DNA of 64,000 nucleotides from a virus (IMGVR_UViG_3300043607_000039:29001-93000); one strand, 5' to 3'; shown: positions 1 through 52,965, numbered from the stretch's first letter. Numbers and translations: made by a program. Notes: generated by a model from the letters alone, not told the origin.

Positions 1-684
1 GCCCACGGGCTTGCGGGGCCGGCCTCTGACGTTGACCGGCTGGGCGTATTCGCGGCGCCCACGAAGCAACTACTGGGACTGCACCCGCCGATCGAGAGCA
101 AGCTCTCGATCGTGCGCAAAGACCCAGACGTCACCCTGCACGAGGCCGGGAAGCTGTGCCGCCTGCTCCTGAAATGCAACCCCTCGGTCATGGAGCTGCT
201 GTGGCTCCCGGAGGAGCTGTACGAGATCCGGACTCCGGCCGGCGAGGAGCTGCTGGGGATCCGGGACGCGTTTCTGTCCGCTGACCGCGTCCGGGATGCG
301 TTCTTCAACTACGCCAGGGACCAGTTCACCAAGCTCATCAACGGCGGCCGACTCGGGAGGAAGTTCTCCGACGAGCCACCAGACCCCGATGAAGTTGCCC
401 AGACCATTAAGCGGCGACGGAAGAACGCCCGCCACGTCCTGCGTCTACTCGACCAGGGACTGCATCTGTACCGGACCGGAGAGCTGATCGTCCGGGTGGA
501 CGATCCGCAGCGGTACTTCGAGTTCGGCGACCGGGCTCTGGATGACCCGGACTACGTCAAGGAGCACCTGATCGCGGCCGAGCTGGCATTCGACCGTCAG
601 CCCTCGGTCCTGCCGCCGCGGCCAGAAGAGACCGCGGTCGAGGACTGGTTGCTCGGCATCCGAAATCAGTTCCACGAGGTGTAG
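1..684 (+). CDS. Pol-beta superfamily nucleotidyltransferase (RlaP/Nuc-transf-like), 5' truncated by window
   Basis: Frame 1 is open from base 1: AHGLAGPASDVDRLGVF (NTase motif), then LLLKCNPSVMELLW and KNARHVLRLL. Confidence 0.8.
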   Translation, partial: AHGLAGPASDVDRLGVFAAPTKQLLGLHPPIESKLSIVRKDPDVTLHEAGKLCRLLLKCNPSVMELLWLPEELYEIRTPAGEELLGIRDAFLSADRVRDAFFNYARDQFTKLINGGRLGRKFSDEPPDPDEVAQTIKRRRKNARHVLRLLDQGLHLYRTGELIVRVDDPQRYFEFGDRALDDPDYVKEHLIAAELAFDRQPSVLPPRPEETAVEDWLLGIRNQFHEV

Positions 685-759
685 TCACGCCTGGAAGATC
701 TTCGATCTTACGAATAAGTCTCACCATATTAACGACCACCAAGAAAGAGGGACGGAACT

Positions 760-1584
760 ATGCGAGTGCCGCTGAAGCTCTTCACGTTGATCATGGTCGC
801 GCTACTGGCCATAGGTCTGGCTGGCGCACAGCCGGCCGCCTCGGTTGCCACCTCAGCTGTCGCTCCACCGCCGGCCGCATTGCGCGTCGTAACCCTTGGC
901 GAGTCCACCAACACCGGCCTGGGTGATCCCAAAGGGTGCGGGTATCGCCGCAAGCTCGCTGAACTGATGAAGACGGCTGCCCCAGGCGGCACCAACCTGC
1001 CGGTTACCTTTACGGGGACGCTCAATGGCAGTGCCCCCAACGATTGCAAGATTCCCTACGGCCACTTTGGACAGACGGTTCAGGACCTCCGGGCCAACGT
1101 CTTGAACTGGCTCGATGCCGACCAGCCCGACGTCATTCTCATCATGGTTGGGATCAATAACTCAGCTGGCGCTGGTGTCGGACTCAACAACTGGCAGTAC
1201 GAGGTGACTCAACTACTCAACACGATCGGCATGTGGCACTACCCGAATGCTCACCAGCAGATCTTCATTGCCACGATTCCCTACTCGGTAGCATCCTGGG
1301 CGCAGAACGAGGTCACGGCCAACGAGGGCATCCTCAACGCGATCAACTCGTTCGCCGGCTATCCCGGGGCGTCGATGATCCACCCTGCGCGAGCCGACTA
1401 CATGCCGTGTGTGCACCTGGCCGACGGGATCCACCCCGACGGGGCCGGCTACGACGTGATCGCCTACCAGTTCTACGCGGCCATGGCCCCTGTCTTCGGG
1501 TTGGAGTCACTGCCGCTGAACTCCATCCACTGGGCAGACCAGCATCGGCCCGGATTCGAGCGGTCGGCGACGGCCTGCACGTGA
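760..1584 (+). CDS. Secreted SGNH/GDSL hydrolase
   Basis: Signal peptide, LGESTNTG block I, GINN block III, DGIHP block V. Confidence 0.85.
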   Translation: MRVPLKLFTLIMVALLAIGLAGAQPAASVATSAVAPPPAALRVVTLGESTNTGLGDPKGCGYRRKLAELMKTAAPGGTNLPVTFTGTLNGSAPNDCKIPYGHFGQTVQDLRANVLNWLDADQPDVILIMVGINNSAGAGVGLNNWQYEVTQLLNTIGMWHYPNAHQQIFIATIPYSVASWAQNEVTANEGILNAINSFAGYPGASMIHPARADYMPCVHLADGIHPDGAGYDVIAYQFYAAMAPVFGLESLPLNSIHWADQHRPGFERSATACT

Positions 1585-1633
1585 TCGGCTAGATTCTCAA
1601 GCGCCTGACCTGCGCAAACACTCCTTCGCCCTC

Positions 1634-1649
1634 ACCCGAATGTACGGGT
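1634..1649. promoter_or_regulatory. 16-bp palindromic operator copy
   Basis: ACCCGAATGTACGGGT. Confidence 0.55.
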
Positions 1650-1677
1650 GAGGGCGATGTGTGTTTCGATGGAAGGC

Positions 1678-4185: not shown

Positions 4186-4326
4186 ATGTACCGGAACGCC
4201 TTGTCGACAACGCAGCAGTCGCTGCGCGGCGAAGCGACCCCGGGCAGCGGACGGCGACTGGTCTCCATGTACAAGGCCAACGATTGGTTCTGCCCCCAGG
4301 AGCACATCCACCGGCGGAGCAGCTAG
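4186..4326 (+). CDS. Attenuator leader peptide (46 aa) containing all 20 amino acids
   Basis: AGGAG RBS; MYRNALSTTQQSLRGEATPGSGRRLVSMYKANDWFCPQEHIHRRSS-TAG; lies between promoter and terminator. Confidence 0.8.
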   Translation: MYRNALSTTQQSLRGEATPGSGRRLVSMYKANDWFCPQEHIHRRSS

Positions 4327-4339
4327 GGTCCAGAAACCC

Positions 4340-4381
4340 GAAGCCGCCCACCCAGTGAACCTGGAAGAGGCGGCTTTCTTC
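4340..4381 (+). terminator. Intrinsic terminator/attenuator upstream of first tRNA
   Basis: GAAGCCGCC/GGCGGCTTT stem followed by CTTC; competing GGCGG (4313-4317) in leader. Confidence 0.75.
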
Positions 4382-4397: not shown

Positions 4398-4470
4398 AGG
4401 GGTGTAGCTCAATTGGCTGAGCTGTCGTCTCCAAAGCGACCGGTTGCAGGTTCGAGTCCTGTCACCCCTG
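4398..4470 (+). tRNA. tRNA-Trp(CCA)
   Basis: Cloverleaf; gtcgt-CTCCAAA-gcgac. Confidence 0.9.
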
Positions 4471-4574
4471 CGTGTTACTTCCGGGCAACCGGAGTTACTT
4501 GAGAATTCCACAGTGGACAGCATGTGTAGATAGAGTCCTGGCCTGTGCCATCACGGGTGGGCCAGGACTATCTT

Positions 4575-4648
4575 CGGGACGTAGCGCAGTCAGGTCGCGC
4601 GCCTGCTTTGGGAGCAGGAGGACGTCGGTTCGAATCCGACCGTCCCGA
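4575..4648 (+). tRNA. tRNA-Pro(TGG)
   Basis: cctgc-TTTGGGA-gcagg. Confidence 0.9.
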
Positions 4649-4653
4649 CGCAT

Positions 4654-4730
4654 GGGGGTATGGCGCAGTTGGTAGCGCGTCTGTCTGTATGGCATACAGA
4701 AGGCCCGCGGTTCGAGTCCGCGTATCTCCA
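4654..4730 (+). tRNA. tRNA-Ala(GGC), with 4-nt TCTG duplication before anticodon stem
   Basis: tctgt-ATGGCAT-acaga; G3.U70. Confidence 0.75.
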
Positions 4731-4826
4731 CGGGTCGTAGTTCAGGGTAGAGCGCCGCGTAAAGGTGTTAGCCGCAAGGTGCACGGAATGTAGCGGAGGC
4801 GCAGGAATCGAATCCTGCCGACTCCA
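4731..4826 (+). ncRNA. tRNA-like RNA with anticodon loop replaced by extended hairpin
   Basis: D arm, T arm and acceptor present; ~34-nt insert with GCAA tetraloop in place of anticodon loop. Confidence 0.6.
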
Positions 4827-4830
4827 GTCT

Positions 4831-4903
4831 GGGGATGTAGCTCACTTGGTAGAGCGCTGTCTTCGCAAGGCAGAGGCAAGGAGTTCGAATCTCCTCATCT
4901 CCA
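4831..4903 (+). tRNA. tRNA-Ala(CGC)
   Basis: ctgtc-TTCGCAA-ggcag. Confidence 0.9.
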
Positions 4904-4953
4904 CGTCGGTATGGGAAGCTCCGAGGTGAGCAACCTCGCCTGTGCCGGCTCCA

Positions 4954-5030
4954 TGTTCCCTAGCTCATCGACAGAGCGTCAGTCCTGATACGACTGGAGG
5001 TCCGGGGTTTAATTCCTCGGGGGAGCACCA
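4954..5030 (+). tRNA. tRNA with GAT anticodon (Ile), atypical
   Basis: cagtc-CTGATAC-gactg; T loop TTTAATT; encoded CCA. Confidence 0.65.
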
Positions 5031-5031
5031 A

Positions 5032-5103
5032 GTCCCTGTAGCTGAGATGGTCTAGCGCTTGGTTGAAGCCCAGGAGACCTCGGTTCAAGTCCGGGCGGGG
5101 ACA
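5032..5103 (+). tRNA. tRNA-Phe(GAA)
   Basis: cttgg-TTGAAGC-ccagg. Confidence 0.85.
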
Positions 5104-5109
5104 CGCAAT

Positions 5110-5183
5110 GCGCTGTTGGAGGAATTGGTTAACTCACCGCCCTCTCAAGGCGGAGACTACGGGTTCGAAACCCGTACAGCGTA
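5110..5183 (+). tRNA. tRNA-Glu(CTC)
   Basis: ccgcc-CTCTCAA-ggcgg. Confidence 0.9.
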
Positions 5184-5318
5184 CGAGTAACTGGAGCAGG
5201 ATTTGCCGTAAGGCGATCAATGGAGCGCGCGCAGAAAAAGTGGCCTCTGAAAAAGGGCGTCCTGGTCCGTTGGCCTGCAACAACTAATCCATCCAGGACT
5301 GCTTCAGTTCCTCATCTA

Positions 5319-5389
5319 GCCGGCGAAGTGTTGTGGTGACACCTCTGTCTTCCAAACAGATATGGCGAGTTCGATTCTCGTCGCCGGCT
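5319..5389 (+). tRNA. tRNA-Gly(TCC)
   Basis: tctgt-CTTCCAA-acaga. Confidence 0.9.
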
Positions 5390-5390
5390 C

Positions 5391-5894
5391 GTGTTCCCCA
5401 TTCCCAAGGAAATCGACGAGCTAGACGCTGACAGTCGCATGATGTTTCTGCGTCACGCGGCCATGTATGAGGACATCTCCTGGACCATGATCCGTCATAC
5501 GAACGACCTGCACGCGGTAGTCACCGAGGAGGAAATGAAGGCAGATGCCTTCGCCCACGCAATGTCTAGCGCGGTGAGCGAGGCAGCTCGATGCCTGGAG
5601 CACTCCTTCTACACCCGTCGCCATCGGGAACAGGACGAGGAGGGCCGGTCCGAGAGGATGTCGTGGTTCTCCCGCGGCGAGGCCTGCGGCCAGAACTACG
5701 TGGCCTACCAGGTAATCCGGACCGCTTACGAGATCCTGCGGGCGGAGTACGGCATCCTGGAGAAGCACTCCGAGATCTGGGACAGGATCGAGGCGGACCC
5801 TGAAGTCAAGAAGCGTAACGACTACATGGAAAGCCTGTTCGTGACCCTGCATCCCCCCAGGTCCGTACCTAACTCCTCGGAGGAGAGGGAATGA
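5391..5894 (+). CDS. Hypothetical protein
   Basis: 167 aa ORF starting 2 nt after tRNA-Gly. Confidence 0.65.
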   Translation: MFPIPKEIDELDADSRMMFLRHAAMYEDISWTMIRHTNDLHAVVTEEEMKADAFAHAMSSAVSEAARCLEHSFYTRRHREQDEEGRSERMSWFSRGEACGQNYVAYQVIRTAYEILRAEYGILEKHSEIWDRIEADPEVKKRNDYMESLFVTLHPPRSVPNSSEERE

Positions 5895-6286
5895 CTCGCT
5901 TCAAGCGATGGCTCGCCAGCCTGGCCGTCGGCCTCCTGGTGATCACGGGCGTGCTCGTGGTCACGGAAGCTCCGGCCGCTGCGGCCCCGTACTGTCCCCC
6001 CAACTACGCCTGCCTCTACGAGAACCAGGGAGGCGGCGGCTCCTCGATCTCGTTCTACTACAGCCCCTACTCCTGCATCTACCTCGGCGGCGGCTTCAAC
6101 GACCGGGCCTCGTCGGTTCGGAACGAAACCCCCATCCAGATCAAGTTCCGGGACAACTTCGACTGCACCGGCAGCTATGTGGCCGCGGGTGCCGCCTGTG
6201 GTGGCTGTCTCGGGTCCTACATCAACGACCTGGCCGGCTGGCCCTACTTCTTCAACGACCGGGTCAGTGCGATCCAGTTCTACTAG
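5891..6286 (+). CDS. Secreted peptidase inhibitor I36 / beta-gamma-crystallin-like protein
   Basis: Signal peptide, CPPNYACLYEN..FNDRASSVRN, FNDRVSAI. Confidence 0.75.
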   Translation: MTRFKRWLASLAVGLLVITGVLVVTEAPAAAAPYCPPNYACLYENQGGGGSSISFYYSPYSCIYLGGGFNDRASSVRNETPIQIKFRDNFDCTGSYVAAGAACGGCLGSYINDLAGWPYFFNDRVSAIQFY

Positions 6287-6331
6287 CAAGAGCGTGTGAC
6301 CCGACCATATGACTCATGGTCGGGTCACCAT

Positions 6332-6404
6332 TCCGGGGTACGGCGTTGGTGCCGTGGCCGCGCTTTGGACGCGGAACCCATAGGTTCGATTCCTGTACCC
6401 GGAG
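6332..6404 (+). tRNA. tRNA-Gln(TTG)
   Basis: ccgcg-CTTTGGA-cgcgg. Confidence 0.8.
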
Positions 6405-6407
6405 CTT

Positions 6408-6480
6408 GCCTCGGTGGGCTAATGGAAAAGCCGCGGTACTCAAACTGCCGTGAATGACGGTTCGAATCCGTCCCTTGGCA
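6408..6480 (+). tRNA. tRNA-Leu(CAA), short variable arm, 2 acceptor mismatches
   Basis: cggta-CTCAAAC-tgccg. Confidence 0.7.
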
Positions 6481-6486
6481 CGCAAT

Positions 6487-6560
6487 GCCGGTATAGCTCA
6501 GTAGGTCAGAGCGCTTCCTCGGTAAGGAAGAGGCCTCCGGTTCGATTCCGGATTCCGGCT
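6487..6560 (+). tRNA. tRNA-Thr(GGT)
   Basis: cttcc-TCGGTAA-ggaag. Confidence 0.9.
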
Positions 6561-6678
6561 CGGCAATCCCTGGTCCGGGCGAATGACCCGGTGAAAGAGG
6601 TGCGCTCCTTCTAGAAGCAGCCTTGTTGTGGGCGCAAGTCCAAACAATGAAGTCTGACGCCGGGGAACTGCATATCAA

Positions 6679-6755
6679 GCGGATGAAGCTCAGCCTGGTC
6701 GAGCGCTATCTTGCCAAGGTAGATGTCGCGGGTTCGAATCCCGTCTTCCGCTCCA
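6679..6755 (+). tRNA. tRNA-Gly(GCC)
   Basis: ctatc-TTGCCAA-ggtag; CCA end. Confidence 0.9.
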
Positions 6756-6765
6756 GTAACAACAT

Positions 6766-6837
6766 GCGGGTGTGGCGCAACGGTAGCGAGGCTCCCTCTA
6801 AAGGAGATGGTTGCGGGTTCGAGTCCCGTCGCCCGCA
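6766..6837 (+). tRNA. Amber suppressor tRNA (CTA)
   Basis: ctcc-CTCTAAA-ggag; intact acceptor and T arm. Confidence 0.8.
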
Positions 6838-6886
6838 CGTGACAAACACATAGGTAAGAAACGACAAGGTTCATGGAGGTGAACCA

Positions 6887-7330
6887 GTGCAAGCAGTCCT
6901 CGTTCTCAACGCTGACCTCGGGCCCTTGCACCGGGTCAGCCTCAAGCACGCGATCCGGATGCTCTGCCGTGGTATCGCAGAGGTCCACGAAGCGGAGCCT
7001 GACATACGCTTCGGTCTGTGGCCGTGGCCCACTGCGGTCAGACTCGTCCGGTACATCGTGACGAAGTGGCGCTACACCGCTGGACCCGCGTGGTCCCGGC
7101 AAGGCGTCCTGAACCGAGACAACCGGACCTGCGGCTACTGCGGTAGCCGCGAAGGTCGCACCGTCGACCACATTCTCCCCACCTCCCGGGGCGGGAAGAA
7201 CACCTGGCAGAACACGGTCGCCTCGTGCGATCCCTGCAACCAGATCAAAGGCAACCGGACCCCGCAAGAGGCCGGCATGCGACTCCTGGTGAAGCCAGCC
7301 GCCCCGAGCTGGGCGACGATGAAGCGGTAA
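6887..7330 (+). CDS. HNH endonuclease
   Basis: VLVLNA N-terminus, RD..TCGYCG, TVDHILPTSRGG, CDPCNQIKG. Confidence 0.9.
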   Translation: MQAVLVLNADLGPLHRVSLKHAIRMLCRGIAEVHEAEPDIRFGLWPWPTAVRLVRYIVTKWRYTAGPAWSRQGVLNRDNRTCGYCGSREGRTVDHILPTSRGGKNTWQNTVASCDPCNQIKGNRTPQEAGMRLLVKPAAPSWATMKR

Positions 7331-7439
7331 AGCAAGAGGCTGGTCCCGATCTGTTCGAGATAATCCCATGGTGAAGACGATGGTCAACGGGTCCATGGAC
7401 CCCGGGATCTAGCGCCAGCCTTCCATGAAACACACACAT

Positions 7440-7512
7440 TCCGAGTTGGTGTAAATCGGTAGCATGGCGGTCTCTGAAACCGTCGGTCTAGGTTCGAGCC
7501 CTGGACTCGGAG
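7440..7512 (+). tRNA. tRNA-Gln(CTG)
   Basis: gcggt-CTCTGAA-accgt. Confidence 0.9.
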
Positions 7513-7533
7513 CAGTAACTCTTGGGGGCACAC

Positions 7534-7788
7534 ATGACAAAAGTCATCGTGTTCCACACCGGGTACGGATGCTGGACCGGTTGTTGTGGACATGCCATTG
7601 CCGTGGTCGACGAGAACGGCAACGAGAAGCGGCAGGCGTTCGAATTCGCTCACCCTTACTTCAAGGGCGAGCGGACCGAAGAGGAAGCCAAGAAGTGGGC
7701 CCAGCAGCTGGTCGCCAACGAAATGGGCAGCGCCCATGTCGCCGACCTGGACTGGGAACATTGCATCATCGAAGATGATGTCTACTAG
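7534..7788 (+). CDS. Hypothetical protein
   Basis: ORF with GCWTGCCGH motif, high GC3. Confidence 0.6.
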   Translation: MTKVIVFHTGYGCWTGCCGHAIAVVDENGNEKRQAFEFAHPYFKGERTEEEAKKWAQQLVANEMGSAHVADLDWEHCIIEDDVY

Positions 7789-7882
7789 TCTCCGCTAGCT
7801 GGAGTCACGTCTAGCGCACCACGGCGGTAATGCAGTCCCTGCCTCCCATGGCGTACTGGCGTCGAGGCAGGGACTGCATCCA

Positions 7883-7963
7883 GGGGGTAGTAGGTACGAC
7901 TGGTGTTGAAGGCCGAGGCATCGGAGCGGCATCAGGACTCGGGTTCGAATCCCGATACCTCCA
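7883..7963 (+). ncRNA. Minimal tmRNA (tRNA-like domain only, no tag reading frame)
   Basis: GGGGGTA/TACCTCC-A acceptor with G3.U70; stemless D loop ..GGTACGAC; P2-like CTGGTGTTG/CGGCATCAG; GAC linker; T arm. Confidence 0.75.
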
Positions 7964-7972
7964 CACGGAAAT

Positions 7973-8045
7973 GCTCTGGTAGCCCAAAGGTAGAGGCACT
8001 GTCTTGAGGAGGCAGCCAGTGGGAGTTCGACTCTCCCTCGGAGCA
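7973..8045 (+). tRNA. tRNA-Leu(GAG), short variable arm
   Basis: ctgtc-TTGAGGA-ggcag. Confidence 0.85.
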
Positions 8046-8046
8046 C

Positions 8047-8121
8047 GGTCTGGGCGTAGCCCAAAGGTAGAGGCAGCCCCTCAAAGGTGTAGTTGCGGAT
8101 TCGACCCCCGCCCCCAGGCCA
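8047..8121 (+). pseudogene. Degenerate tRNA (Leu-like D arm; anticodon CAA or TCA ambiguous)
   Basis: D arm identical to preceding Leu tRNA; poor anticodon stem. Confidence 0.5.
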
Positions 8122-8126
8122 CCTTT

Positions 8127-8199
8127 GCCGGCGTAGCTCACCAGGTAGAGCGCGGATCTTGTAAATCCGAGGCAGTCGGTTCGAGTCCGACCGTCGGCT
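8127..8199 (+). tRNA. tRNA-Thr(TGT)
   Basis: cggat-CTTGTAA-atccg. Confidence 0.9.
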
Positions 8200-8200
8200 C

Positions 8201-8605
8201 GTGAATCACAGGCACAGCGAATACGAGGAGATCTCGGGAGTACCGGAGATCACCGACTTCAAGCTCCTCTGGATTAGCGGCTTCTACGACGGCCCCACAT
8301 CCGGACTGGTCCAGGTCGGCGAAAGCCTGTGCTGGGCGCAAATGATCGAAGAGTGCAGTGAGGATCCAGGCTGCGGTTGGTACCGCAAGTACAAGCTCAT
8401 GAAGATGAGCGTCGAGCAGATTCTCGACCAGGTCCAGCAGCACGCACTGTTTGCCAAGTTCGTGTCAGGCCAAAAGGAACTGGGCTGGGACTGGACTCAG
8501 ATTGACACCCAACGGCCCCATTCGGAATGGTCGGGCTACTACGACCAGTACGGAACAGACGCCCAGGATCCGGTCGGAGAAGTTGTGGGGTGGTTCGTTC
8601 GATGA
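8201..8605 (+). CDS. Hypothetical protein
   Basis: 134 aa, FYDGPTSG motif; starts 2 nt after tRNA-Thr. Confidence 0.65.
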   Translation: MNHRHSEYEEISGVPEITDFKLLWISGFYDGPTSGLVQVGESLCWAQMIEECSEDPGCGWYRKYKLMKMSVEQILDQVQQHALFAKFVSGQKELGWDWTQIDTQRPHSEWSGYYDQYGTDAQDPVGEVVGWFVR

Positions 8606-8940
8606 AACACGGATATACACTCGCGACGATCTACTCCAGGACCAGTAAGAGGTACCAGGTCGAGTTCTGGTCCCAACCCTGGCGCCATTGGATCGTGGCC
8701 AACGTCTACCACTGGTACGACATGCACGTCTTCAAGGTGCCTGGGTTCAGACGCCTGGAGAAGTGGCTCCACGACCGGCACGGCAACGATCCACTGGAGT
8801 ACATCCCGCTGGGGTGCCGTCAGGACCTCCGGTGCTGGCACCTCACCAACAAGAGGCGGGTCCAGTTGGTGACCCTCGGGATCACTGCCGAGCAGTACGG
8901 ACGACTAGGAGGCAGGTATGGCTCGGAGGGTGCCCAATAA
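8602..8940 (+). CDS. Hypothetical protein
   Basis: ATGA overlap with upstream gene. Confidence 0.55.
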   Translation: MKHGYTLATIYSRTSKRYQVEFWSQPWRHWIVANVYHWYDMHVFKVPGFRRLEKWLHDRHGNDPLEYIPLGCRQDLRCWHLTNKRRVQLVTLGITAEQYGRLGGRYGSEGAQ

Positions 8941-9121
8941 GTGGCCCGGCCCTCCGCACCTGGAGCCCTACAACGGACTCTGGGTGGGAGTAGTGGGCCG
9001 TCGAGTCGTAGTACACGGAGAAAGCCCCGAGCAGGTCCGAGCCAAGATCAAGCACCTGCGGCGCCAGGTCGACGCCGTGTTCGAGGTCCCTGCGTACAAG
9101 AAATGGGGGAAAGAAGAATGA
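8918..9121 (+). CDS. Hypothetical protein
   Basis: RBS GGAGG; YNGLWVGV..VVVHGES. Confidence 0.55.
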   Translation: MARRVPNKWPGPPHLEPYNGLWVGVVGRRVVVHGESPEQVRAKIKHLRRQVDAVFEVPAYKKWGKEE

Positions 9122-9262
9122 TCCCCTGGTGGATGTGGCTGATCGGACTGCTGGGCCTGGCGACCGCGGTAATTGGCTGGTCAATCACCCAGACTCCTCC
9201 GGGAGACAAGGACGCAGCCCCACGTCAGGATGCACAATGGTGGCGATAGCTCGGGAGGGTCA

Positions 9263-9451
9263 ATGATGCAGTTTGTGAAGAGCACCAAATGCGAAACGGG
9301 TGCCTGTGTCGAGGTAGCCCTTGGTGAGGATCGGGCGCTGGTGCGCAACTCCACACAGCCAGGCACGGTCAACGAGTTCCCCAAGGAGATGTGGGAGGGC
9401 TTCGTGGCCGCAGTTCGACAGGGAACGTTCGACTTTGACTCGCCCGTGTAG
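9263..9451 (+). CDS. DUF397 (BldB-like) protein
   Basis: KST.C..GACVEVA...VRNS....W..FVAAVR.G. Confidence 0.85.
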   Translation: MMQFVKSTKCETGACVEVALGEDRALVRNSTQPGTVNEFPKEMWEGFVAAVRQGTFDFDSPV

Positions 9452-9515
9452 CTCGGACGGTTCGAGCAGCCGCCTCGTAAGCGGAAGGATCCCAGTTCGA
9501 ATCTGGGCTCGGGCT
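9442..9515 (+). tRNA. tRNA-Thr(CGT)
   Basis: ccgc-CTCGTAA-gcgg. Confidence 0.85.
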
Positions 9516-9518
9516 CGG

Positions 9519-9587
9519 GGGTTGAGCACTGGTGTGCAGGTTTGCTTTGCAAGCAGACCCCGCGGAGTTCGACTCTCCGTCAATCCA
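9519..9587 (+). tRNA. tRNA-Ala(TGC), short D arm
   Basis: tttgc-TTTGCAA-gcaga; G3.U70. Confidence 0.75.
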
Positions 9588-9705
9588 CGCCTGCGTCCAC
9601 AGGCCCAGGTGAAGGGTACGGACGGCGAGGTAAGAACCAGGATTAGCGGGTCGGCTGGTTGGGCCTGTTGGTTCTCACATGGTCCTGGTCGCCCTTCATC
9701 ACCAT

Positions 9706-9780
9706 GCCGAGGTAGGCCACGCTGGCGAGCCGCTGCATTTAGGGTGCAGTGTTAGGCGGGTTCGACTCCCGTCCTCGGTA
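9706..9780 (+). tRNA. tRNA-Leu(TAG), short variable arm
   Basis: ctgca-TTTAGGG-tgcag. Confidence 0.8.
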
Positions 9781-9817
9781 CTTGAAATAGCAGACGTGGT
9801 GAGTAAACTGTCATCCC

Positions 9818-10372
9818 ATGCGCCTGCTCGTCAAGACATATGGCCCGTATATCTACAGGTCTGGCAATAGGTTACGTCGGTTCGTGATCCACCTTTACGA
9901 CGACGGCACTCGTCGTACCCAGTCCAATGCCCGATACCTGTTGGAGCAACACCTGGGGCGCCTACTGACAGAAGACGAAGACGCCGATCATATTGACGGA
10001 AACCCTTTGAATGATGACCTATCCAACTTACGTCCGTTGTCGTCTTTCGAAAACCGAAGTCGAGCACATGAGCCTGCGCCTCTCTATGAGTTCAGCTGCC
10101 TCATGTGTGGTAATTCAGCGGTCACGCTGTTGCGTGACTATCGACGTAACCAGGAGGTTCTCGGGAAAGCTGGACCCTTCTGTAGCAAGTCGTGTTCGGG
10201 GACATGGTCCACAACCGTTGACAGGGCGAACCAGGGCAACTCCTGTAAACCCCATAAGACTCACTGCAAGTACGGTCATCTGAAGACAGGCCTGATCAGA
10301 AAGGCAGATGGATCCGTGTACAAGAACTGCAACGAATGTAACCGCTTACGTGCTCAATTACGTCGGAAGTAA
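9818..10372 (+). CDS. HNH homing endonuclease
   Basis: HLGRLL..DADHIDGNPLNDDLSNL; FCSKSC; KTHCKYGH; lower GC. Confidence 0.85.
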   Translation: MRLLVKTYGPYIYRSGNRLRRFVIHLYDDGTRRTQSNARYLLEQHLGRLLTEDEDADHIDGNPLNDDLSNLRPLSSFENRSRAHEPAPLYEFSCLMCGNSAVTLLRDYRRNQEVLGKAGPFCSKSCSGTWSTTVDRANQGNSCKPHKTHCKYGHLKTGLIRKADGSVYKNCNECNRLRAQLRRK

Positions 10373-10382
10373 CGCCGCCTTC

Positions 10383-10455
10383 GGGCGGGTACTCCAACGG
10401 TAGAGAGAGCTGATTTAAAACCAGTCCAGTACGGGTTCGACTCCCGTGCCGCCCA
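10383..10455 (+). tRNA. tRNA-Leu(TAA), short variable arm
   Basis: gctga-TTTAAAA-ccagt. Confidence 0.8.
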
Positions 10456-10499
10456 CAGTTGGTTTTCAGCAGTACCCTCTCCTGGAGAGAGATAGTCAA

Positions 10500-10573
10500 G
10501 GTGTCGTGGCGTAGTTGGTTAGCGCACCTCCCTGTCACGGAGGAGATCGCGGGTTCGAGTCCCGTCGGCGCCG
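10500..10573 (+). tRNA. tRNA-Asp(GTC)
   Basis: cctcc-CTGTCAC-ggagg. Confidence 0.9.
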
Positions 10574-10574
10574 C

Positions 10575-10859
10575 ATGTCAGATGAAACAGAACCATTGCC
10601 CTGTCTTATCTGTGCCAGGAGGCTCAGGGCCGCAATGCCCGATGCCTACAACCAGCCGTGGGGTGCGACCATGTTCCATTCCCACGGCCAGTACGGCAGC
10701 ACCCTGTTCGACCCCATTCACAGCATGGTGCGACTAGAAATCAACATCTGCGACGAGTGCCTCAGGGCGCACAAGGAGCGGGTCATTTACGTTCGGGATC
10801 ATCACGTCGAGCCGACACACGACGTAATGCCGTGGGACCCGAACATGTTCGACGATTAA
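10575..10859 (+). CDS. Hypothetical Zn-binding phage protein
   Basis: CLIC..GQYGST.FD..ICDEC; starts 2 nt after tRNA-Asp. Confidence 0.65.
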   Translation: MSDETEPLPCLICARRLRAAMPDAYNQPWGATMFHSHGQYGSTLFDPIHSMVRLEINICDECLRAHKERVIYVRDHHVEPTHDVMPWDPNMFDD

Positions 10860-10865
10860 TTGAAT

Positions 10866-10955
10866 AGTGAGATGGCCGAGTGGTCGAAGGCGCAGCACTG
10901 CTAATGCTGAGGTCGCCGTTAAGGGGGCCCCCGGGTTCGAATCCCGGTCTCACTG
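10866..10955 (+). tRNA. tRNA-Ser(GCT)
   Basis: cagca-CTGCTAA-tgctg; long V arm. Confidence 0.9.
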
Positions 10956-10960
10956 CACAA

Positions 10961-11035
10961 GGGAGCGTAGCTCAGCCCGGTTTGAGCACCCGTCTGATAA
11001 GCGGGAGGTCGGCGGTTCAAATCCGTCCGCTCCTA
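10961..11035 (+). tRNA. tRNA-Ile(GAT)
   Basis: cccgt-CTGATAA-gcggg. Confidence 0.9.
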
Positions 11036-11045
11036 CGTAACACAT

Positions 11046-11119
11046 GCCCCCTTAGTTCAGAGGATTAGAACATCTGACTACGGATCAGAAGGTCGCGTGT
11101 TCGAATCACGCAGGGGGTG
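11046..11119 (+). tRNA. tRNA-Arg(ACG)
   Basis: tctga-CTACGGA-tcaga. Confidence 0.9.
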
Positions 11120-11716: not shown

Positions 11717-11763
11717 TCCGCGAATTCTACTCGGGGGCATTCGTTCGAGATCCTGGAGAGAAC

Positions 11764-11925: not shown

Positions 11926-11933
11926 GGCTCGGC

Positions 11934-41058: not shown

Positions 41059-41097
41059 GCTGGCCCGGTCACGTAGGAGTTTGCACGCCCACAAGGA

Positions 41098-41132
41098 GAA
41101 GCCCCACTCACGGAGATGGTGAGTGGGGCTTC
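41098..41132. terminator. Bidirectional terminator at strand switch
   Basis: GAAGCCCCACTCAC/GTGAGTGGGGCTTC. Confidence 0.8.
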
Positions 41133-41151
41133 TTCGATGTCCTCATCGTCT

Positions 41152-41514: not shown

Positions 41515-42072
41515 GTTTCCAAAATCTCCCATTGACGATGTCGCGAATCTGCTCTCGGGAGACACCAAACTTGACCCCAAGGGCCGACAAAGTAACCAGG
41601 ATGCCCGTCAACGGGCTGCACCCTGCACCCACCAAAAGTCAGCTTGCCTCAACGCAATGGCGTGCTTCTTCCACGCCGTGAGTTCGGACTGGCTCAACCG
41701 GAGCACGTCCTTGGACTTCCAACTTGCGAAGAAGTCCAGCAGCTCTTGTCTGATCTGGTCGTCTGGGTAGTCAGCCAGCTCGATCACGGTTCACAGCCAC
41801 AAGTCAATGTGTGTCGCTCACCGTGCTCACCGTCCACACCAAGGGGCCGGTGCCGGTCACACTGATCAATGAGCCTTTGCAGGCGCTCCACATGCTCACG
41901 AGCGCGACTGTCCCCTGAGAGCCCTACATGGGTCTGGGCCACGCACAGGGTTTCGCGGAGCATCTTTGGGCCATCGCCCGCAATGTCTAACAAGACTCGG
42001 TTCATTGGGCCAACAACTCCAGTGTCTCGGCCGCCAGCTCTCGCTTCAGTGCTCGCCGTACCTGGCGTGGAC

Positions 42073-42315
42073 TCAGGTATCGCTCTGGGCAGTCTGGTCC
42101 GGGAGGTCCGTTGCAATAGGGACACCAGGGTCCACTGACTCTGCCTGGCATTCTTGCCATGACTTCGGCTCCTTCTTCGGAAGCCTCTTCAGCACGTCTC
42201 GAACCGTTTCACGAGACAGACCCACACGCCGGCCGATTTCAGCCTTCGATAGGTCGGGGTTTGTGCTCAAGGTGAGGATGGCGTCGAGCTGTTCATCGTT
42301 GAGTTTGGTGCTCAT
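42073..42315 (-). CDS. Small HTH protein
   Basis: LSKAEIGRRVGLSRETVRDVL. Confidence 0.55.
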   Translation of the reverse strand: MSTKLNDEQLDAILTLSTNPDLSKAEIGRRVGLSRETVRDVLKRLPKKEPKSWQECQAESVDPGVPIATDLPDQTAQSDT

Positions 42316-42340
42316 CGGTTGCGAGATTCGCTTTCGCTCG

Positions 42341-42643
42341 TCAACTGGGAATGCCAGCTTTCCCGTGCTCAGTCGGCCATTCACCAGTGGCTTTGTGATG
42401 GAGATTTGCGCAGAGTCCCTTGGGATTCTTCGGGAAGTACTTCCGGAGCAGGGCTACACAACGACGGAATGATCCGTCGGTCCCCCAGCCAATTTTGGCT
42501 GCCCCCGCCCCGTGGGTCCAGTAGGCCATGAGCCGACGGGTCGCCTCCGGGTTCTTGATCTCTCCTGGGGACACGAACTCGTCACAGTCGAGGCAGCCGG
42601 CGCCTTGGCGCCTGGCTAAGTCAACGGATAGCTTCCCGGCCAT
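42341..42643 (-). CDS. Conserved actinophage protein
   Basis: YWTHGAGAAKIGWG..F.RC..GLCANLH..ATG.WP. Confidence 0.6.
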   Translation of the reverse strand: MAGKLSVDLARRQGAGCLDCDEFVSPGEIKNPEATRRLMAYWTHGAGAAKIGWGTDGSFRRCVALLRKYFPKNPKGLCANLHHKATGEWPTEHGKAGIPS

Positions 42644-42682
42644 ATCGACACGATACAGCGGTGACGCCGCCGGTGGGAGGCT

Positions 42683-43390
42683 TCACTCGCAGAAGCGGTC
42701 GACGTACACGTAGGCCTCGCTCGGAGCCCACCCGTCGGGCGCCTCGGCCTGGATCAGGTACAGCCCCGGCCGTTCGTAGGTGTGCTTACGGAGCTTGTCC
42801 TCGGTGCCGTCGCCCCACTTGATGAGCACGTTGTCTGGGTCGTCCACCAGGAGGATGTCCACCGTGAATCCATCGCCACCGAACTCGATGTCCTCCAAGG
42901 TGGGCTGGAGGTCGGGTTCGGTCACGCTGGTCACCTCGCCACTGCCTGCCTGCCAGGTCTTGTTCTGACCGCTGACGAACTGCTCCAGGATGTCTGGGCC
43001 GTCCTCAATGAACCGCAGCGGTCCCTTGCCGGCCATGATGGACTCCGGGATCAGGAAGGCGATGTTCGGGCCCAGAGTCGTGGTGCGGACCTGGTCTCCG
43101 TCGAGACCGGCCCAGTCCATGAGTCGGGCCGCCACGTGCGGGGCCTGCTTCACGTACGCCACGTCGATCCTCAACTGACCGCAACCCATGTCCTCTTCTT
43201 CCCCTGGTTCGGGTTCAGCCAAACGATGTCGACCCGGGGGAACGGGCAGGGGAGTCGGCGCCACCACGGTCTTCTCTGAAGTACTGAGCCAGAAGTTCTT
43301 CGCCCAGGCGTACCCAACCGCGAAGAACAGCGCGCAGAGCAGGCCGTAGGCCCACAGCGGGATCGTGATGATAATGGACAGGAACTTCAT
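42683..43390 (-). CDS. Membrane-anchored protein with PKD-like C-terminus
   Basis: N-terminal TM; IKWGDGT..HTYERPG.Y. Confidence 0.6.
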   Translation of the reverse strand: MKFLSIIITIPLWAYGLLCALFFAVGYAWAKNFWLSTSEKTVVAPTPLPVPPGRHRLAEPEPGEEEDMGCGQLRIDVAYVKQAPHVAARLMDWAGLDGDQVRTTTLGPNIAFLIPESIMAGKGPLRFIEDGPDILEQFVSGQNKTWQAGSGEVTSVTEPDLQPTLEDIEFGGDGFTVDILLVDDPDNVLIKWGDGTEDKLRKHTYERPGLYLIQAEAPDGWAPSEAYVYVDRFCE

Positions 43391-43728
43391 TTACTCTCCT
43401 CTTCCTCCCGAAGGAACTGGAGGGTTTCCAGTCGGTCATCGATACAGTGACCGCAGTAACAGGTCCAGTGGGCCCAGACTACGAAGCCGACCAGGGGCAC
43501 GTGGACCACGAGCGTGTGTCGGCCGAACTCGTCCCCGCCGTGGAGCCACTGCGGAACCACCCACCCCCACCAGAGGGGAGTCCATCGCGTGTACCCGTAT
43601 CGCCAGAAACGTCGTTGTTTCATGGAAACCCCATTTTGAAAAATTCTGCGGAGGTACTTTTCAAAGGTTATATCGATGATCTCAAGTGGTTCGATATCTC
43701 TCTGGATAGAGAGCCGGGCCCACACCAC
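43387..43728 (-). CDS. Hypothetical protein
   Basis: GGDEFGRHT motif; start uncertain. Confidence 0.5.
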   Translation of the reverse strand: MVWARLSIQRDIEPLEIIDITFEKYLRRIFQNGVSMKQRRFWRYGYTRWTPLWWGWVVPQWLHGGDEFGRHTLVVHVPLVGFVVWAHWTCYCGHCIDDRLETLQFLREEEESK

Positions 43729-44515
43729 GCTCCCGGGTGTTCACGACGTCGGTGTCGAATACGGACCAGGACCGGTCCTTCTTACCCGCGTTGCCATCAC
43801 AGTCCAGACCCACGACCGTGGTGATGTGCATATCCCGGGTAATGCCGTGATGGCTGTGCCACATCTGGTAGACGTAGGGATAGTGCAGGTGGCCGTGGAT
43901 GAAGTACTTCGGATCCAGGGTCTCCACTGCCCGTTGGAGCCGATCCTGGTTGGGTAGGCAGAAGTCGTAATCCTTGCGGTTCCACCCGGGCTCGGAACCA
44001 CGTGGCTTGTCGTGGGCGAGGATTACGTCGACCAGTGACGTGTCCTGGAGGATCTGCTTCATGTCCTCGTCGGACATCTCCTCCTCCGGGAACCATTCCG
44101 ATTGATGCCGGCCGCTACGGACTTCCCGCTCCAGCCGTTCCTTCTTGTCAACGCTGCGAGCGCCTCCAAGCGCAATGAACCGGCAGTCGTCCCAGGTCCA
44201 CCGGTGTCCGCGGCGGGCGTAACGCACCTGGGGTCGCACCAGGAGAAAGCCCTCGGGATCGGTGTACTCGGGGGTGTCGTACTTCTCCAGAAGTAAAGAC
44301 GTCTTGTCGTGGTTGCCGTCAAGAAAGTAGACGGTGATTTCTCTTGCCGCGTCGCTGACGGTGTCCATGAACTCGATGCCGAACAGGGTGTGTTCCCAGT
44401 AGCCGAAGTCGCCCACGACGAAGACGCGGTCACAGCCCATTATCCTGGCCCTGCGGATCAGGTACAGGACATGGCGGGTGTTGCCGTGGGTATCACCAGC
44501 CAAAAGAACCTTCAT
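43682..44515 (-). CDS. Calcineurin-like metallophosphoesterase
   Basis: GDTHG, GDFG, DGNHD, GGA.SVD, HGHLH. Confidence 0.9.
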   Translation of the reverse strand: MKVLLAGDTHGNTRHVLYLIRRARIMGCDRVFVVGDFGYWEHTLFGIEFMDTVSDAAREITVYFLDGNHDKTSLLLEKYDTPEYTDPEGFLLVRPQVRYARRGHRWTWDDCRFIALGGARSVDKKERLEREVRSGRHQSEWFPEEEMSDEDMKQILQDTSLVDVILAHDKPRGSEPGWNRKDYDFCLPNQDRLQRAVETLDPKYFIHGHLHYPYVYQMWHSHHGITRDMHITTVVGLDCDGNAGKKDRSWSVFDTDVVNTRERGVGPALYPERYRTT

Positions 44516-45263
44516 CGAATTCACATCCTGGAGTGGTGAGCGCCTGGCGATAGAGTTCTTGCCACTGATCATTTGATCCTATGTAAAGCCTTTCGATGTC
44601 GGTTCGAGTGACGTCCTTCCGGGTTACGCGGACCTTTCCGTGGAAACAGATGATCGACATTCCATCCATGTAGTTGGTGATGATCAGACTTCTTCCGTCT
44701 GTCGGAAGATTGCGAAGTAGCAGGATCGGTGGCAGCGGTGGCGGCAGTGTGATCAGGTTCGAGATGTCATGCGGAGGGAACTCTCTCAGCAACTCTTCAC
44801 GACTCCCGAACAATGGCACCCCGTAATACTCCTCGACCCCTTTGTGAGTGTGGCCGGCAAAGCCCAGACCCAGACCCAGACCCGTCCATTTCCCAATGCA
44901 CAAAGCCTCAACTGTTGCGTATTGGGCCCGGAAGCCGACCTCCCCGAGAATGATTCGACCCTCGGCCTTGATGGAGCCTTCCAAGGCGCCGGCGTAGTTG
45001 GCAGGGAAGCCCTGGTGTGTCGCATAGAAGCCGCACGAGCAATCACGAAGAGGAACCTGCGGCCGTTCATCGGAGACGGTAAGAGTTTGCCGGGAATGAT
45101 GGACACCGCCGATGCACTGCGCTTGATTGCGTCCAGAATGCCAGTCGAACATCCGCACCTTGCCGCGGAGCACAGGTGGGCGCCAGTCCCAAGCTCGGTA
45201 ACCGCGCAAGAACCCTGGGATTAACTCATGCTCCTGCTTGCTGTAGGCGTCGTCGTGGCTCAT
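44493..45263 (-). CDS. Conserved phage hypothetical protein
   Basis: GYRAW..CSCGFYA..GFRAQYA. Confidence 0.65.
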   Translation of the reverse strand: MSHDDAYSKQEHELIPGFLRGYRAWDWRPPVLRGKVRMFDWHSGRNQAQCIGGVHHSRQTLTVSDERPQVPLRDCSCGFYATHQGFPANYAGALEGSIKAEGRIILGEVGFRAQYATVEALCIGKWTGLGLGLGFAGHTHKGVEEYYGVPLFGSREELLREFPPHDISNLITLPPPLPPILLLRNLPTDGRSLIITNYMDGMSIICFHGKVRVTRKDVTRTDIERLYIGSNDQWQELYRQALTTPGCEFDEGSFGW

Positions 45264-51331: not shown

Positions 51332-51336
51332 GAGGC

Positions 51337-51645
51337 TCAAGAGGCTGACGGATCTCCGTCGTCCAAGAGGTAGCCCGGCTCGGGTACGCCCGCGGCCCAT
51401 AGCCTGTCGGCCAGGTCGGCGATGTCTCGCATCGAGCCCATGATCAGACTCAGTGGCATGTTGAAAGTGAGCAGGTCGTGCCGCTTGACGCCGTCCTCCA
51501 GCTGCCCGCCCATCTCCCTGACCCTGATCCCGAGCCCGGCGATGGCGCGCACCAGGTCATCGGGCAGGTCCGGATAGCGAGGGGCCGCGGAGAAGATCTC
51601 CTCCCAGGCGTCGGCCGGGAAAACCGTGTCCTCGAACTCAGGCAT
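51337..51645 (-). CDS. Hypothetical protein
   Basis: 102 aa ORF. Confidence 0.55.
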   Translation of the reverse strand: MPEFEDTVFPADAWEEIFSAAPRYPDLPDDLVRAIAGLGIRVREMGGQLEDGVKRHDLLTFNMPLSLIMGSMRDIADLADRLWAAGVPEPGYLLDDGDPSAS

Positions 51646-51989
51646 CAGTCCTCTTCCGGGTAGCCGGCGGCCCGAAGGGCGCTTTCGATTGTCACCAGGT
51701 CCTCGTCGGTGGTGCTCATCTCCGGGTGCTCCAGTAGGTCCGGGTAGCAGATGGCCACCTCGACCATGTACCGGATCGGGTTGATGGCCGACCGGGTCAG
51801 GTCACCGCGCTCCAGGAGACTGGCCTTCGACAGCACGTCGGTCACATGCTTGTCCCAGATGCTGTAGGCCTCGTGCGCCGTCACGAGACCGAACTTCCTG
51901 AGGTCGTCCGGACCCGCCTCCCACGAGTCTCCGTTGGTCAGGACGACGTGCAACGTCCCCTCGATGGGACGGTCAAAGTTGGCCTTCAT
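51645..51989 (-). CDS. Hypothetical protein
   Basis: MKANFDRP...; coupled. Confidence 0.55.
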   Translation of the reverse strand: MKANFDRPIEGTLHVVLTNGDSWEAGPDDLRKFGLVTAHEAYSIWDKHVTDVLSKASLLERGDLTRSAINPIRYMVEVAICYPDLLEHPEMSTTDEDLVTIESALRAAGYPEED

Positions 51990-52411
51990 TGGAACTCCCT
52001 TGGGAACTGGTCGTTGTAGCCATGGCCCCATTCCGGGCTGGAGTCCACTAGACCGAAGTACTCCTTCATCCACCTCAAGAGGCGATCGGCTCCCTCCCCG
52101 CTCCAGCCGTCTTCGTCGTAGCGCAACGACTCAGCCTCCAAGGCCACCCAGGCAATGATCCGGCGACGTTCGTCAGCCCTGATCAGTTCGTCATGGCCCC
52201 TCTCGATGGAGACCATAGGAGTCTTCCCTGGCGCCTGGAGTTGTTCCACCAACAGCTGCGGGCTCCCGTGTGGCGGGCGCCCAGAACCGGCGCAGAACTT
52301 GCCCTTGGTCTTGTCTCGAAGCTCGAACGGAACCCAGTGGTTGCGAACGGTGCCAAAAGTAAACACCTCGTACTTGCGGAAGCAGACGCTACAGAGCCCG
52401 CGCTGTCGCAT
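51986..52411 (-). CDS. Hypothetical protein
   Basis: CSVC..H..CAGSG. Confidence 0.5.
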   Translation of the reverse strand: MRQRGLCSVCFRKYEVFTFGTVRNHWVPFELRDKTKGKFCAGSGRPPHGSPQLLVEQLQAPGKTPMVSIERGHDELIRADERRRIIAWVALEAESLRYDEDGWSGEGADRLLRWMKEYFGLVDSSPEWGHGYNDQFPREFQ

Positions 52412-52413
52412 TC

Positions 52414-52965
52414 CTACTCAACCTCCTCCCGGAACAGGTCAATGAACTCCTGGATCTTGGTCAGGTGCTTTTTGACCAGACCCTCTCTGCTGGCCGGCGA
52501 GATCAGCAGCACCTTACCGACCTCCCGCAGCCGCGTGCCTTGGCCGGGCTCCAGTCCGTAGCTAAGGTCATCATCGGTCCAAACCAGGGGGCGCCCCTCT
52601 TCGCTGACCACTCGCCAGCCGGCCGGCCACTTCCACCAATTGTCACCGAAGCGGTTCCCAAACTCGGGAGCATCCTGCACCTCAAAGGTAGGCAGCCCAA
52701 GCGCGGTAGCCAGGTTCTGAGCGGCTTCCTGCCATGTGGTATGCCACCGGATTTCCACCAGGCCACTGGCGTGCACCTCGTTGATGAAGTCCACCACCGG
52801 CTGGGCAGCCAGAATCGGCCACGTTCGGCTATAGCCAAGGGCCTCAGTCTGAACCCAGGCTTCATGGGGCCAGATGTTGGTTTGCGGCTCTTTGCTAACC
52901 GCGTTGAGTACGCCGTCGATGTCCAGCAACCACACCGGCTTATTGGGATTCGTCAAGCTCGTCAA
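52414..52965 (-). CDS. HAD-domain phosphatase (RNA-repair 'Swiss army knife' type)
   Basis: LLDIDGVLN, W.TTW, WK, LVWTDDD, GL. Confidence 0.8.
   Translation of the reverse strand: MTSLTNPNKPVWLLDIDGVLNAVSKEPQTNIWPHEAWVQTEALGYSRTWPILAAQPVVDFINEVHASGLVEIRWHTTWQEAAQNLATALGLPTFEVQDAPEFGNRFGDNWWKWPAGWRVVSEEGRPLVWTDDDLSYGLEPGQGTRLREVGKVLLISPASREGLVKKHLTKIQEFIDLFREEVE

Follow-up and report, generated by a model that had tools for sequence, protein, structure and literature searches.

The 64,000-nucleotide stretch of viral DNA IMGVR_UViG_3300043607_000039:29001-93000, hereafter the window, covers bases 29001-93000 of a 93,000-bp IMG/VR virus record whose ends are open. Around a large tRNA array it encodes an RlaP-family nucleotidyltransferase, a SpoU-class RNA methylase, a tmRNA cut down to its tRNA-like domain (mini-tmRNA), a Ro60 protein with three Y RNAs, a release factor-like protein reduced to its GGQ domain, a metallophosphoesterase and a small HAD-superfamily protein. 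An earlier note, made from the sequence alone, had taken these parts for one coordinated counter-defence against tRNA cleavage and translation shut-off by the host. The reading that we favor, with moderate confidence, is that they form a mosaic translation-autonomy repertoire which recurs in tRNA-rich actinophages, and that they do not make up a single operon, regulon or co-inherited unit. The parts are spread over three transcription blocks on both strands (table 1), no enzyme able to seal RNA was detected beside them, and their inheritance is uneven.

The distribution of the parts among relatives is the most direct evidence. Two true relatives of the present phage (G000) were found via the GGQ protein: G021, of 56 kb, and G022, which is rated complete at 118 kb and has terminal repeats. 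The three genomes share a gene order in which ATPase or ParB-like genes are followed by a primase and then by the GGQ gene, and each carries 36-45 tRNAs together with that gene. The tRNA array and the GGQ gene are the only parts common to all three. G000 and G022 have RlaP on the 5' side of the array as well as the mini-tmRNA; Ro60 is present in G000 and G021, in different places; the SpoU and HAD genes occur in G000 only. In G022 there was a phosphoesterase and no TROVE, SpoU or HAD match, and in G021 RlaP, SpoU, the phosphoesterase and HAD were not found, the HAD search of both genomes having had no positive control. Among 20 Ro60-bearing IMG/VR records, RlaP was found in three, RtcB in one, the ligase family PF09414 in two and an RF-1-domain gene in none, and six near-complete Ro60-bearing IMG/VR phages gave no ligase match. 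The present record may be incomplete, the fragmentary IMG/VR contigs make such absences weak evidence, and searches with profile hidden Markov models (HMMs) can miss divergent enzymes. Given this uneven content, both in the lineage and in the Ro60 records, several parts are nevertheless unlinked in distribution, which the earlier note had itself named as an outcome that would speak against a joint system. An apparent lack of linkage between Ro60 and the GGQ protein in GenBank phages, drawn from the genomes with tblastn matches, was dropped, as HMM searches found both in the mycobacteriophage ScottMcG. Elsewhere the families are tightly linked: provirus L012 holds SpoU, RlaP, Ro60, phosphoesterase, a PF09414 Rnl-type ligase and a PNK-HAD protein inside 13 kb, and in provirus L021 Ro60, RtcB, RlaP and a Metallophos_2 gene are contiguous, from which it follows that these families do work together somewhere.

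The RlaP family is named after its genomic association with RNA ligase; its enzyme extends the 3'-OH ends of RNA by one or two nucleotides, with a preference for damaged RNA (bioRxiv 10.64898/2025.12.29.696909). The nucleotidyltransferase of the window belongs to this family (PF10127, 60.9 bits on window positions 1-684 and 77.9 bits for the full open reading frame [ORF], against a cut-off of 23). Its gene opens the rightward block leading into the tRNA array, and its G022 homologue stands 2 kb 5' of the array of that phage; the immediate neighbors here, which encode a GDSL esterase and a beta-helix-like protein, are not RNA genes. The earlier note had seen no RtcB or RNA ligase in the window, and this absence extends to the 93-kb record, in which profile searches returned no match to RtcB, PF09414, PF09511 or PF01743, hence no Rnl-type ligase or CCA-adding enzyme, although the PF09511 negative says little since that search matched none of the control genomes. 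The record likewise contains no homologue of the RNA ligase of phage LuckySocke, and there was no Pfam kinase match among the ORFs scanned. The complete genome of G022 gave no RtcB or PF09414 match. Neither the record nor G022 thus shows the RlaP-ligase association, and a complete healing-and-sealing pathway of the T4 Pnkp/Rnl or RtcB type was not found; RlaP occurs without a detected ligase in the present phage, G022, ScottMcG and Atuin. A 441-aa ORF near RlaP (1648-2973) was considered as a hidden ligase and rejected: it had no Pfam, PHROG or NCBIfam match and no similarity to the L012 ligase, and the beta-helix or PKD domains of some homologues make an RNA enzyme improbable.

The tRNAs number 45 (43 predicted by ARAGORN and two by Rfam only) and cover all 20 amino acids, in agreement with the approximate count of the earlier note and with its remark that most lack an encoded CCA. 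A full CCA is encoded in 2 of the 43 ARAGORN tRNAs, C is found at position 74 (C74) in 43/43, and position 75 is usually G. In relatives and distant actinophages (L080, L081, L082, L001 and L002) C74 was counted in 40/42, 30/30, 9/9, 30/30 and 26/27 tRNAs, and the same combination of a kept C74 and a mostly unencoded CCA is seen in the relatives, in LuckySocke and in Atuin. This pattern points to a specific rule of tRNA 3' processing. The HNH endonuclease genes interspersed with the tRNAs are consistent with mobile-element traffic having shaped the array. Just 5' of the first tRNA lies the putative leader attenuator of the earlier note, in which a 46-codon ORF contains 18 successive amino acids that are all different, the longest such run in the six frames of the genome (the maximum in 30 Markov shuffles was 17); the GC hairpin with T-rich tail that follows it was not detected by a terminator scan. 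One of the tRNAs is of the amber-suppressor type (CUA anticodon, 6766-6838, 58 bits), and the long ORFs of the genome are intact under the standard code.

The mini-tmRNA, which sits within the array, matches the two ends of the tmRNA model RF00023: it scores 45.4 bits, below the gathering score of 47 (E about 1e-15; 1e-16 on an 801-nt stretch), and covers model positions 1-29 and 334-374, the 304 central positions being replaced by 16 nt. Its predicted structure has an acceptor stem with G3:U70, a P2-like helix and a T arm, while a short hairpin takes the place of pseudoknots and tag ORF. It thus has the features of a tmRNA tRNA-like domain (G3:U70 acceptor stem and T arm) and lacks an mRNA-like domain with resume codon and tag frame. 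The G022 homologue (48.4 bits) has a covarying acceptor stem in which G3:U70 is retained with compensatory changes. No blastn match to the mini-tmRNA was found among GenBank phages; a pattern built from it, on the other hand, retrieved tRNA-like-domain-only elements from 49 viral contigs of IMG/VR (L026-L074, G+C 35-70%). These elements are 74-86 nt long and contain an internal hairpin besides a P2-like helix that covaries; CCA is encoded in many of them. Only nine "standard, no CDS" (coding sequence) forms are listed in the tmRNA database (PMC4131195, PMC11915505), and compared with these the class therefore looks far wider in viruses. Because a tRNA-like-domain-only molecule of this kind is reported to inhibit tmRNA strongly, perhaps via titration of SmpB (PMC4131195, PMC11915505), the mini-tmRNA may block ribosome rescue rather than perform it.

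Between tRNA-Arg(CCG) and tRNA-Cys, still inside the array, lies the methylase gene, which the earlier note had called TrmH. The SpoU domain itself is clear from its PF00588 score. Its many homologues, 65-88% identical, bear the COG-type name TrmL, not TrmH, in the JGI annotation, and by these names the protein is better described as TrmL-like. No NCBIfam equivalog fired, the sole NCBIfam match being to TrmJ/YjtD far below its cut-off, and no solved structure was matched by sequence. SpoU methylases are rare in GenBank phages (two records), and a pattern scan of IMG/VR for relatives found none.

Ro60 has a TROVE domain followed by a vWA domain, even though VWA_2, at 26.6 bits, is slightly under its 27-bit cut-off. 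It is 51% identical to the Ro-like proteins of the Streptomyces phages BRock and LuckySocke, and its score lies far below the cut-off of the NCBIfam Rsr equivalog, so that it is not a strict Rsr orthologue. The three Y RNAs that had been placed before it are convincing. All three stem-loops in 39046-39381 are closed by the same motif pair, 5' GGUGCG and 3' UUGAUCUC; the 3' octamer occurs seven times in the window for 1.6 expected, three of the copies being at the Y RNAs. The pair, with covarying flanks, is found again ahead of the Ro60 gene in 13 of 20 related viral loci. An alignment of 14 copies of the long form (basal stem, T arm, further stem, D arm) shows compensatory changes in 16 of 26 pairs. 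Y RNA 3 has a fold z-score of -2.3 and matches the YrlA model RF02553 weakly (22.4 bits; gathering score 69). Ro60 thus has adjacent Y RNAs with a basal stem and at least one tRNA-like module. As for its genomic setting, 17 of 20 related IMG/VR loci have tRNA genes at most 10 kb from Ro60, usually flanking it directly, and Ro60 sits within the tRNA array in LuckySocke and Atuin. Neither of the relatives L075 and L076 has a Ro60 homologue in the interval between primase and GGQ gene; the slot occupied here by Ro60 and the Y RNAs (38801-41152) holds unrelated sequence in these loci (L075 3349-4136 and L076 10345-12100). In G021, Ro60 is instead beside the tRNA array, with YrlA-type matches nearby. 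Since the primase-GGQ slot of L075 and L076 has no counterpart to it, we infer that the Ro60/Y RNA cassette of the window is an insertion, and the cassette looks mobile.

The GGQ protein, whose true start is probably an internal methionine, shows the GGQ motif in its translation and has no codon-reading domain. Only domain 3 of release factors aligns to it from the solved structures of RF1, RF2 and PrfH. It is conserved in G021 (69% identity) and G022 (63%) and can be considered a candidate codon-independent peptidyl-tRNA hydrolase. It does not classify as ArfB, despite the presence of GGQ (NF006718, 24.5 bits against a cut-off of 100).

The two remaining proteins are less telling. The phosphoesterase shares a leftward operon with the GGQ gene; a marginal match to the solved structure of an RNA lariat debranching enzyme (E 0.056) was not used. 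Beside it, a 256-aa protein (44493-45263) has four tandem paralogues in G022 (L076 83-2413) and a homologue in LuckySocke (gp6). HMM searches confirmed the phosphoesterase, as they did the RlaP, Ro60 and GGQ proteins named in the earlier note. The HAD phosphatase of that note fared less well: the DxDG motif is there, and about one-fifth of 120 HAD homologues among the matches listed carry PF18143, but the protein itself scores 19.6 bits against this family, below the cut-off of 27.5, so that its assignment to the Swiss-Army-Knife RNA-repair HADs is indirect, through those homologues. It matched no solved structure by sequence. The nearest phage homologues of both proteins have no RNA context, and neither protein can be tied to an RNA role here.

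The coordinates of all features are collected in table 1; the coding frames of ORFs are backed by third-position G+C. The window has a G+C content of about 62%, and positions 38000-44000 gave no megablast match to GenBank phages, which indicates that none of these is close at the DNA level. Protein matches, at 30-55% identity, are to Streptomyces, Gordonia, Arthrobacter and Mycobacterium phages, and Micromonosporaceae proteins are among the homologues of the methylase and HAD protein. From the sources of these closest homologues we infer a Micromonosporaceae-like actinomycete host, the window being the non-structural part of an uncultured soil actinophage. Among the head-assembly genes is a 5,885-aa ORF on the minus strand (positions 4955-22612 of the genome) whose frame is open and third-position G+C high. 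The terminase intein carries a LAGLIDADG homing endonuclease. The minus strand of 54117-57182 carries a gene set of the tellurite-resistance type (TerC/DUF475, vWA-TerF-like and TerD); in LuckySocke, too, a TerD-family gene adjoins the tRNA array.

Table 1. Features of the window and of its upstream flank (window positions)
Feature	Position	Strand	Evidence and remarks
Head-assembly genes, with a MuF-like gene and the 5,885-aa ORF among them	upstream of window	leftward	
Rightward block, RlaP through tRNA array	about -53 to 23,000	+	
RlaP-family Pol-beta nucleotidyltransferase	1-684; ORF starts 53 nt upstream of window	+	PF10127, phrog_388
Small ORF (46 codons), then GC hairpin with T-rich tail	ORF 4186-4326; hairpin 4340-4377; element 4186-4377	+	just 5' of first tRNA
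Co-oriented tRNA array	4398-19450	+	42 ARAGORN and 2 Rfam-only tRNAs; HNH genes and small ORFs interspersed
HNH endonuclease genes	6887-7330, 9818-10372, 11117-11716, 34028-34687		in tRNA array and replication block
Mini-tmRNA, tRNA-like domain, 84 nt	7883-7966	+	RF00023
tRNA with long arm	12521-12605		Rfam only
tRNA	12819-12894		Rfam only
Small SPOUT (SpoU-class) RNA 2'-O-methyltransferase, TrmL-like	17888-18415	+	PF00588, 50.3 bits
Large terminase, 1,008 aa	23589-26615	leftward	contains intein; lies between two rightward blocks
Replication block: AAA ATPase, ParB-like genes, primase-polymerase, Ro60	26.9-41.1 kb	+	
tRNA-Arg(CCU), isolated	28478-28551	+	
Y RNA 1, short form	39046-39126	+	basal stem, closing motif pair
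Y RNA 2, short form	39151-39228	+	same closing motif pair
Y RNA 3, YrlA-like long form	39243-39381	+	tRNA-like T and D arms
Ro60, TROVE and vWA	39424-41058	+	PF05731 73.5 bits, phrog_850
Long block: GGQ protein, phosphoesterase, M23/LysM peptidase, HAD protein, TerC/TerF-vWA/TerD	41.1 kb to window end	-	
GGQ-only RF-1-domain protein	41152-41580	-	PF00472 59.1 bits, phrog_3122 122 bits
Calcineurin-like metallophosphoesterase	43682-44572	-	PF00149 47.8 bits, phrog_1649
Small HAD-superfamily protein, HAD_SAK_2-like	52414-53037	-	DxDG motif; 180-aa gene in public collection

The scenario of the earlier note, in which a single coordinated counter-defence repairs tRNAs cleaved by anticodon nucleases and rescues jammed ribosomes while a leader peptide senses tRNA depletion, now appears unlikely. 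It has real arguments: all the families figure in published phage repair and rescue toolkits (PMC7824862, section 3.4.9; PMC6514570), and the compact Ro60-ligase-RlaP-phosphoesterase clusters of L012 and L021 join several of them physically, and they are genuine families of RNA repair and ribosome rescue; moreover, the tRNA array encloses SpoU and is headed by RlaP, and the all-different run of the leader ORF, which exceeds all 30 shuffles, is followed by a hairpin and the first tRNA. However, the linkage seen elsewhere is not reproduced in the present lineage, where the parts occupy three transcription blocks on opposite strands, lack a sealing enzyme or 5'-kinase both here and in the complete relative, and are co-inherited neither by the close relatives nor by Ro60 phages. 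A tRNA-like-domain-only tmRNA is, in addition, a reported inhibitor of tmRNA (PMC4131195), and the leader sensor depends on a composition statistic of one small ORF whose hairpin the terminator scan missed.

At the other extreme, the parts could be unrelated accessory genes of a large actinophage, their co-presence reflecting genome size and the selection made by the reader of the sequence. The generic character of the phosphoesterase and HAD families, with nearest phage homologues outside any RNA context, fits this possibility, as do the GDSL esterase and beta-helix-like protein that flank RlaP and the different part content of close relatives. We nevertheless regard it as quite improbable, since Ro60 adjoins tRNAs in 17 of 20 related loci, RlaP heads the array in two lineage members, SpoU and the mini-tmRNA are within the array, and RlaP, Ro60, RF-1 and a tRNA/tmRNA set recur together in phages as distant as ScottMcG; genes collected at random would not be expected to be placed in this way. 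The mosaic repertoire that we favor stands between the two scenarios, and several points weigh against it. Every functional role considered here is drawn from family membership, and the inhibition of tmRNA was obtained by expression in E. coli, another system than the present phage. Large genome size alone could account for some of the co-occurrence. Conversely, the L012 and L021 clusters imply a real connection between Ro60, RlaP, phosphoesterase and SpoU that may persist here in trans, for instance with host RtcB. Finally, the record is 25 kb shorter than G022 and open at its ends, so that a ligase may lie on the missing DNA, and with so many ORFs unassigned the HMM searches could have overlooked a divergent one.

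If the parts do form such a repertoire, the main strategy of the phage would be to replace tRNAs, with 45 of its own for all 20 amino acids, rather than to repair them. As no phage ligase or kinase was detected, the phage enzymes could not reseal cleaved tRNAs. Accessory genes servicing tRNAs and ribosomes would have been gathered piecemeal around this tRNA supply. Judging from their families, RlaP would add one or two nucleotides to the 3' ends of damaged or incomplete RNAs, the most plausible targets being the phage tRNAs that encode only C74; the TrmL-like enzyme would 2'-O-methylate tRNA; Ro60 and its Y RNAs would triage misfolded or misprocessed structured RNAs, probably aided by an exonuclease of the host, in the manner known from bacteria; the mini-tmRNA would compete for SmpB and thereby damp trans-translation tagging by the host; and the GGQ protein would free peptides from stalled ribosomes in a tag-free manner. 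Speculatively, the presence of C74 in 43/43 tRNAs and of CCA in 2/43, together with the position of RlaP at the start of the array, hints at a function on tRNA 3' ends that needs no ligase. The broader idea, that RlaP is a ligase-free finishing or repair enzyme of tRNA 3' ends in tRNA-rich actinophages, which together with the mini-tmRNA and the GGQ protein constitutes a translation programme run by the phage, is tentative, and its chances seem to us rather small.

These data indicate that the textbook phage tRNA-repair kit does not automatically transfer to tRNA-rich actinophages, which have its accessory families and no sealing enzyme, so that their probable strategy is replacement of tRNAs and not repair. 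No major concept is altered on the present evidence. The leads that emerge are ligase-free RlaP genes heading arrays of C74-ending tRNAs, Ro60/Y RNA cassettes in phage arrays, and an occurrence of tRNA-like-domain-only tmRNAs in viruses that is far wider than published lists show.

Several parts have known counterparts. The Ro60 locus resembles Ro60/Rsr with YrlA-type Y RNAs (RF02553; Chen et al. 2014, PMC4201824) in having TROVE and vWA domains, Y RNAs immediately 5', a conserved basal stem of the Ro-binding type and one tRNA-like Y RNA. In over 250 bacteria and phages, genes for Y RNAs adjoin Ro60, and phage Ro60 genes with neighboring Y RNAs have already been reported (PMC4201824); the present locus differs by two extra short Y RNAs, a weak Rfam match and its phage context, in which Ro60 is usually embedded in tRNA arrays. 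Like the stand-alone rescue factors ArfB/ICT1 and PrfH, the GGQ protein has a GGQ peptidyl-hydrolase domain but neither the N-terminal nor the stop-codon-reading domain that RF1/RF2 possess. Its domain scores nearer to RF1, RF2 and PrfH than to ArfB, and its C-terminal part is not throughout an ArfB-type basic tail; unlike PrfH, whose partner is RtcB, it has no such partner here. The mini-tmRNA compares with the tRNA-like-domain-only tmRNA of mycobacteriophage DS6A (PMC4131195, PMC11915505) and with organellar tmRNAs devoid of CDS, which also have scarcely more than the tRNA-like domain and no tag reading frame, but it is embedded in a 45-tRNA array and has, as said above, no match among GenBank phages. 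The right half of the DS6A genome contained no homologues of the proteins discussed here; a regular expression for the tRNA-like domain found no element there either, a negative that carries little weight because the same expression missed the G022 copy.

At the level of whole genomes, the closest systems are the Bxz1-like mycobacteriophages (cluster C1, Bixzunavirus; ScottMcG and ET08), which also combine a large tRNA set with scattered RlaP, Ro60 and GGQ genes and have no RtcB or PF09414 ligase. ScottMcG, a phage of the Bxz1 species, gave matches for RlaP, Ro60 and the RF-1 domain, with none for RtcB or PF09414; this phage is listed with a tmRNA (PMC4131195), and YrlA-type Y RNAs are reported in ET08 (PMC4201824). 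The backbone of the present phage is unrelated to theirs, and its Ro60 did not retrieve the Bxz1-type Ro60 by tblastn. It has 45 tRNAs, whereas McGee, a phage of cluster C1, is reported to have 31 (PMC9583779), its tmRNA lacks the message part, and a TrmL-like methylase is added. Atuin similarly has RlaP, Ro60 and a tRNA array with no ligase match. In WXIN, RlaP, an RNA ligase, PNK, a peptidyl-tRNA hydrolase, a TrmH-family methylase, an RF-1-domain gene and a phosphoesterase are scattered over the genome. The phage toolkits for RNA repair and ribosome rescue in the literature (Burroughs and Aravind 2016; Iyer et al. 2021, PMC7824862) comprise the same families, i.e., tRNAs, RlaP, ROT/TROVE proteins with a tRNA-like partner and phosphoesterases, and have the same proposed purpose, defence of translation against the host. 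In jumbo phages RlaP is said to mirror the distribution of RNA ligase (PMC7824862), whereas here RlaP stands without a detected ligase. The combination of tRNAs, RNA ligases, RlaP, TROVE proteins and end-healing enzymes has been interpreted as a response of phages to host attack on translation (PMC7824862, section 3.4.9, with reference to Burroughs and Aravind 2016), and the coupling of release factor-like proteins to RNA repair has been discussed as well (PMC6514570). The counter-defence idea is thus already published for jumbo phages, and the same gene mix is known from large actinobacterial phages.

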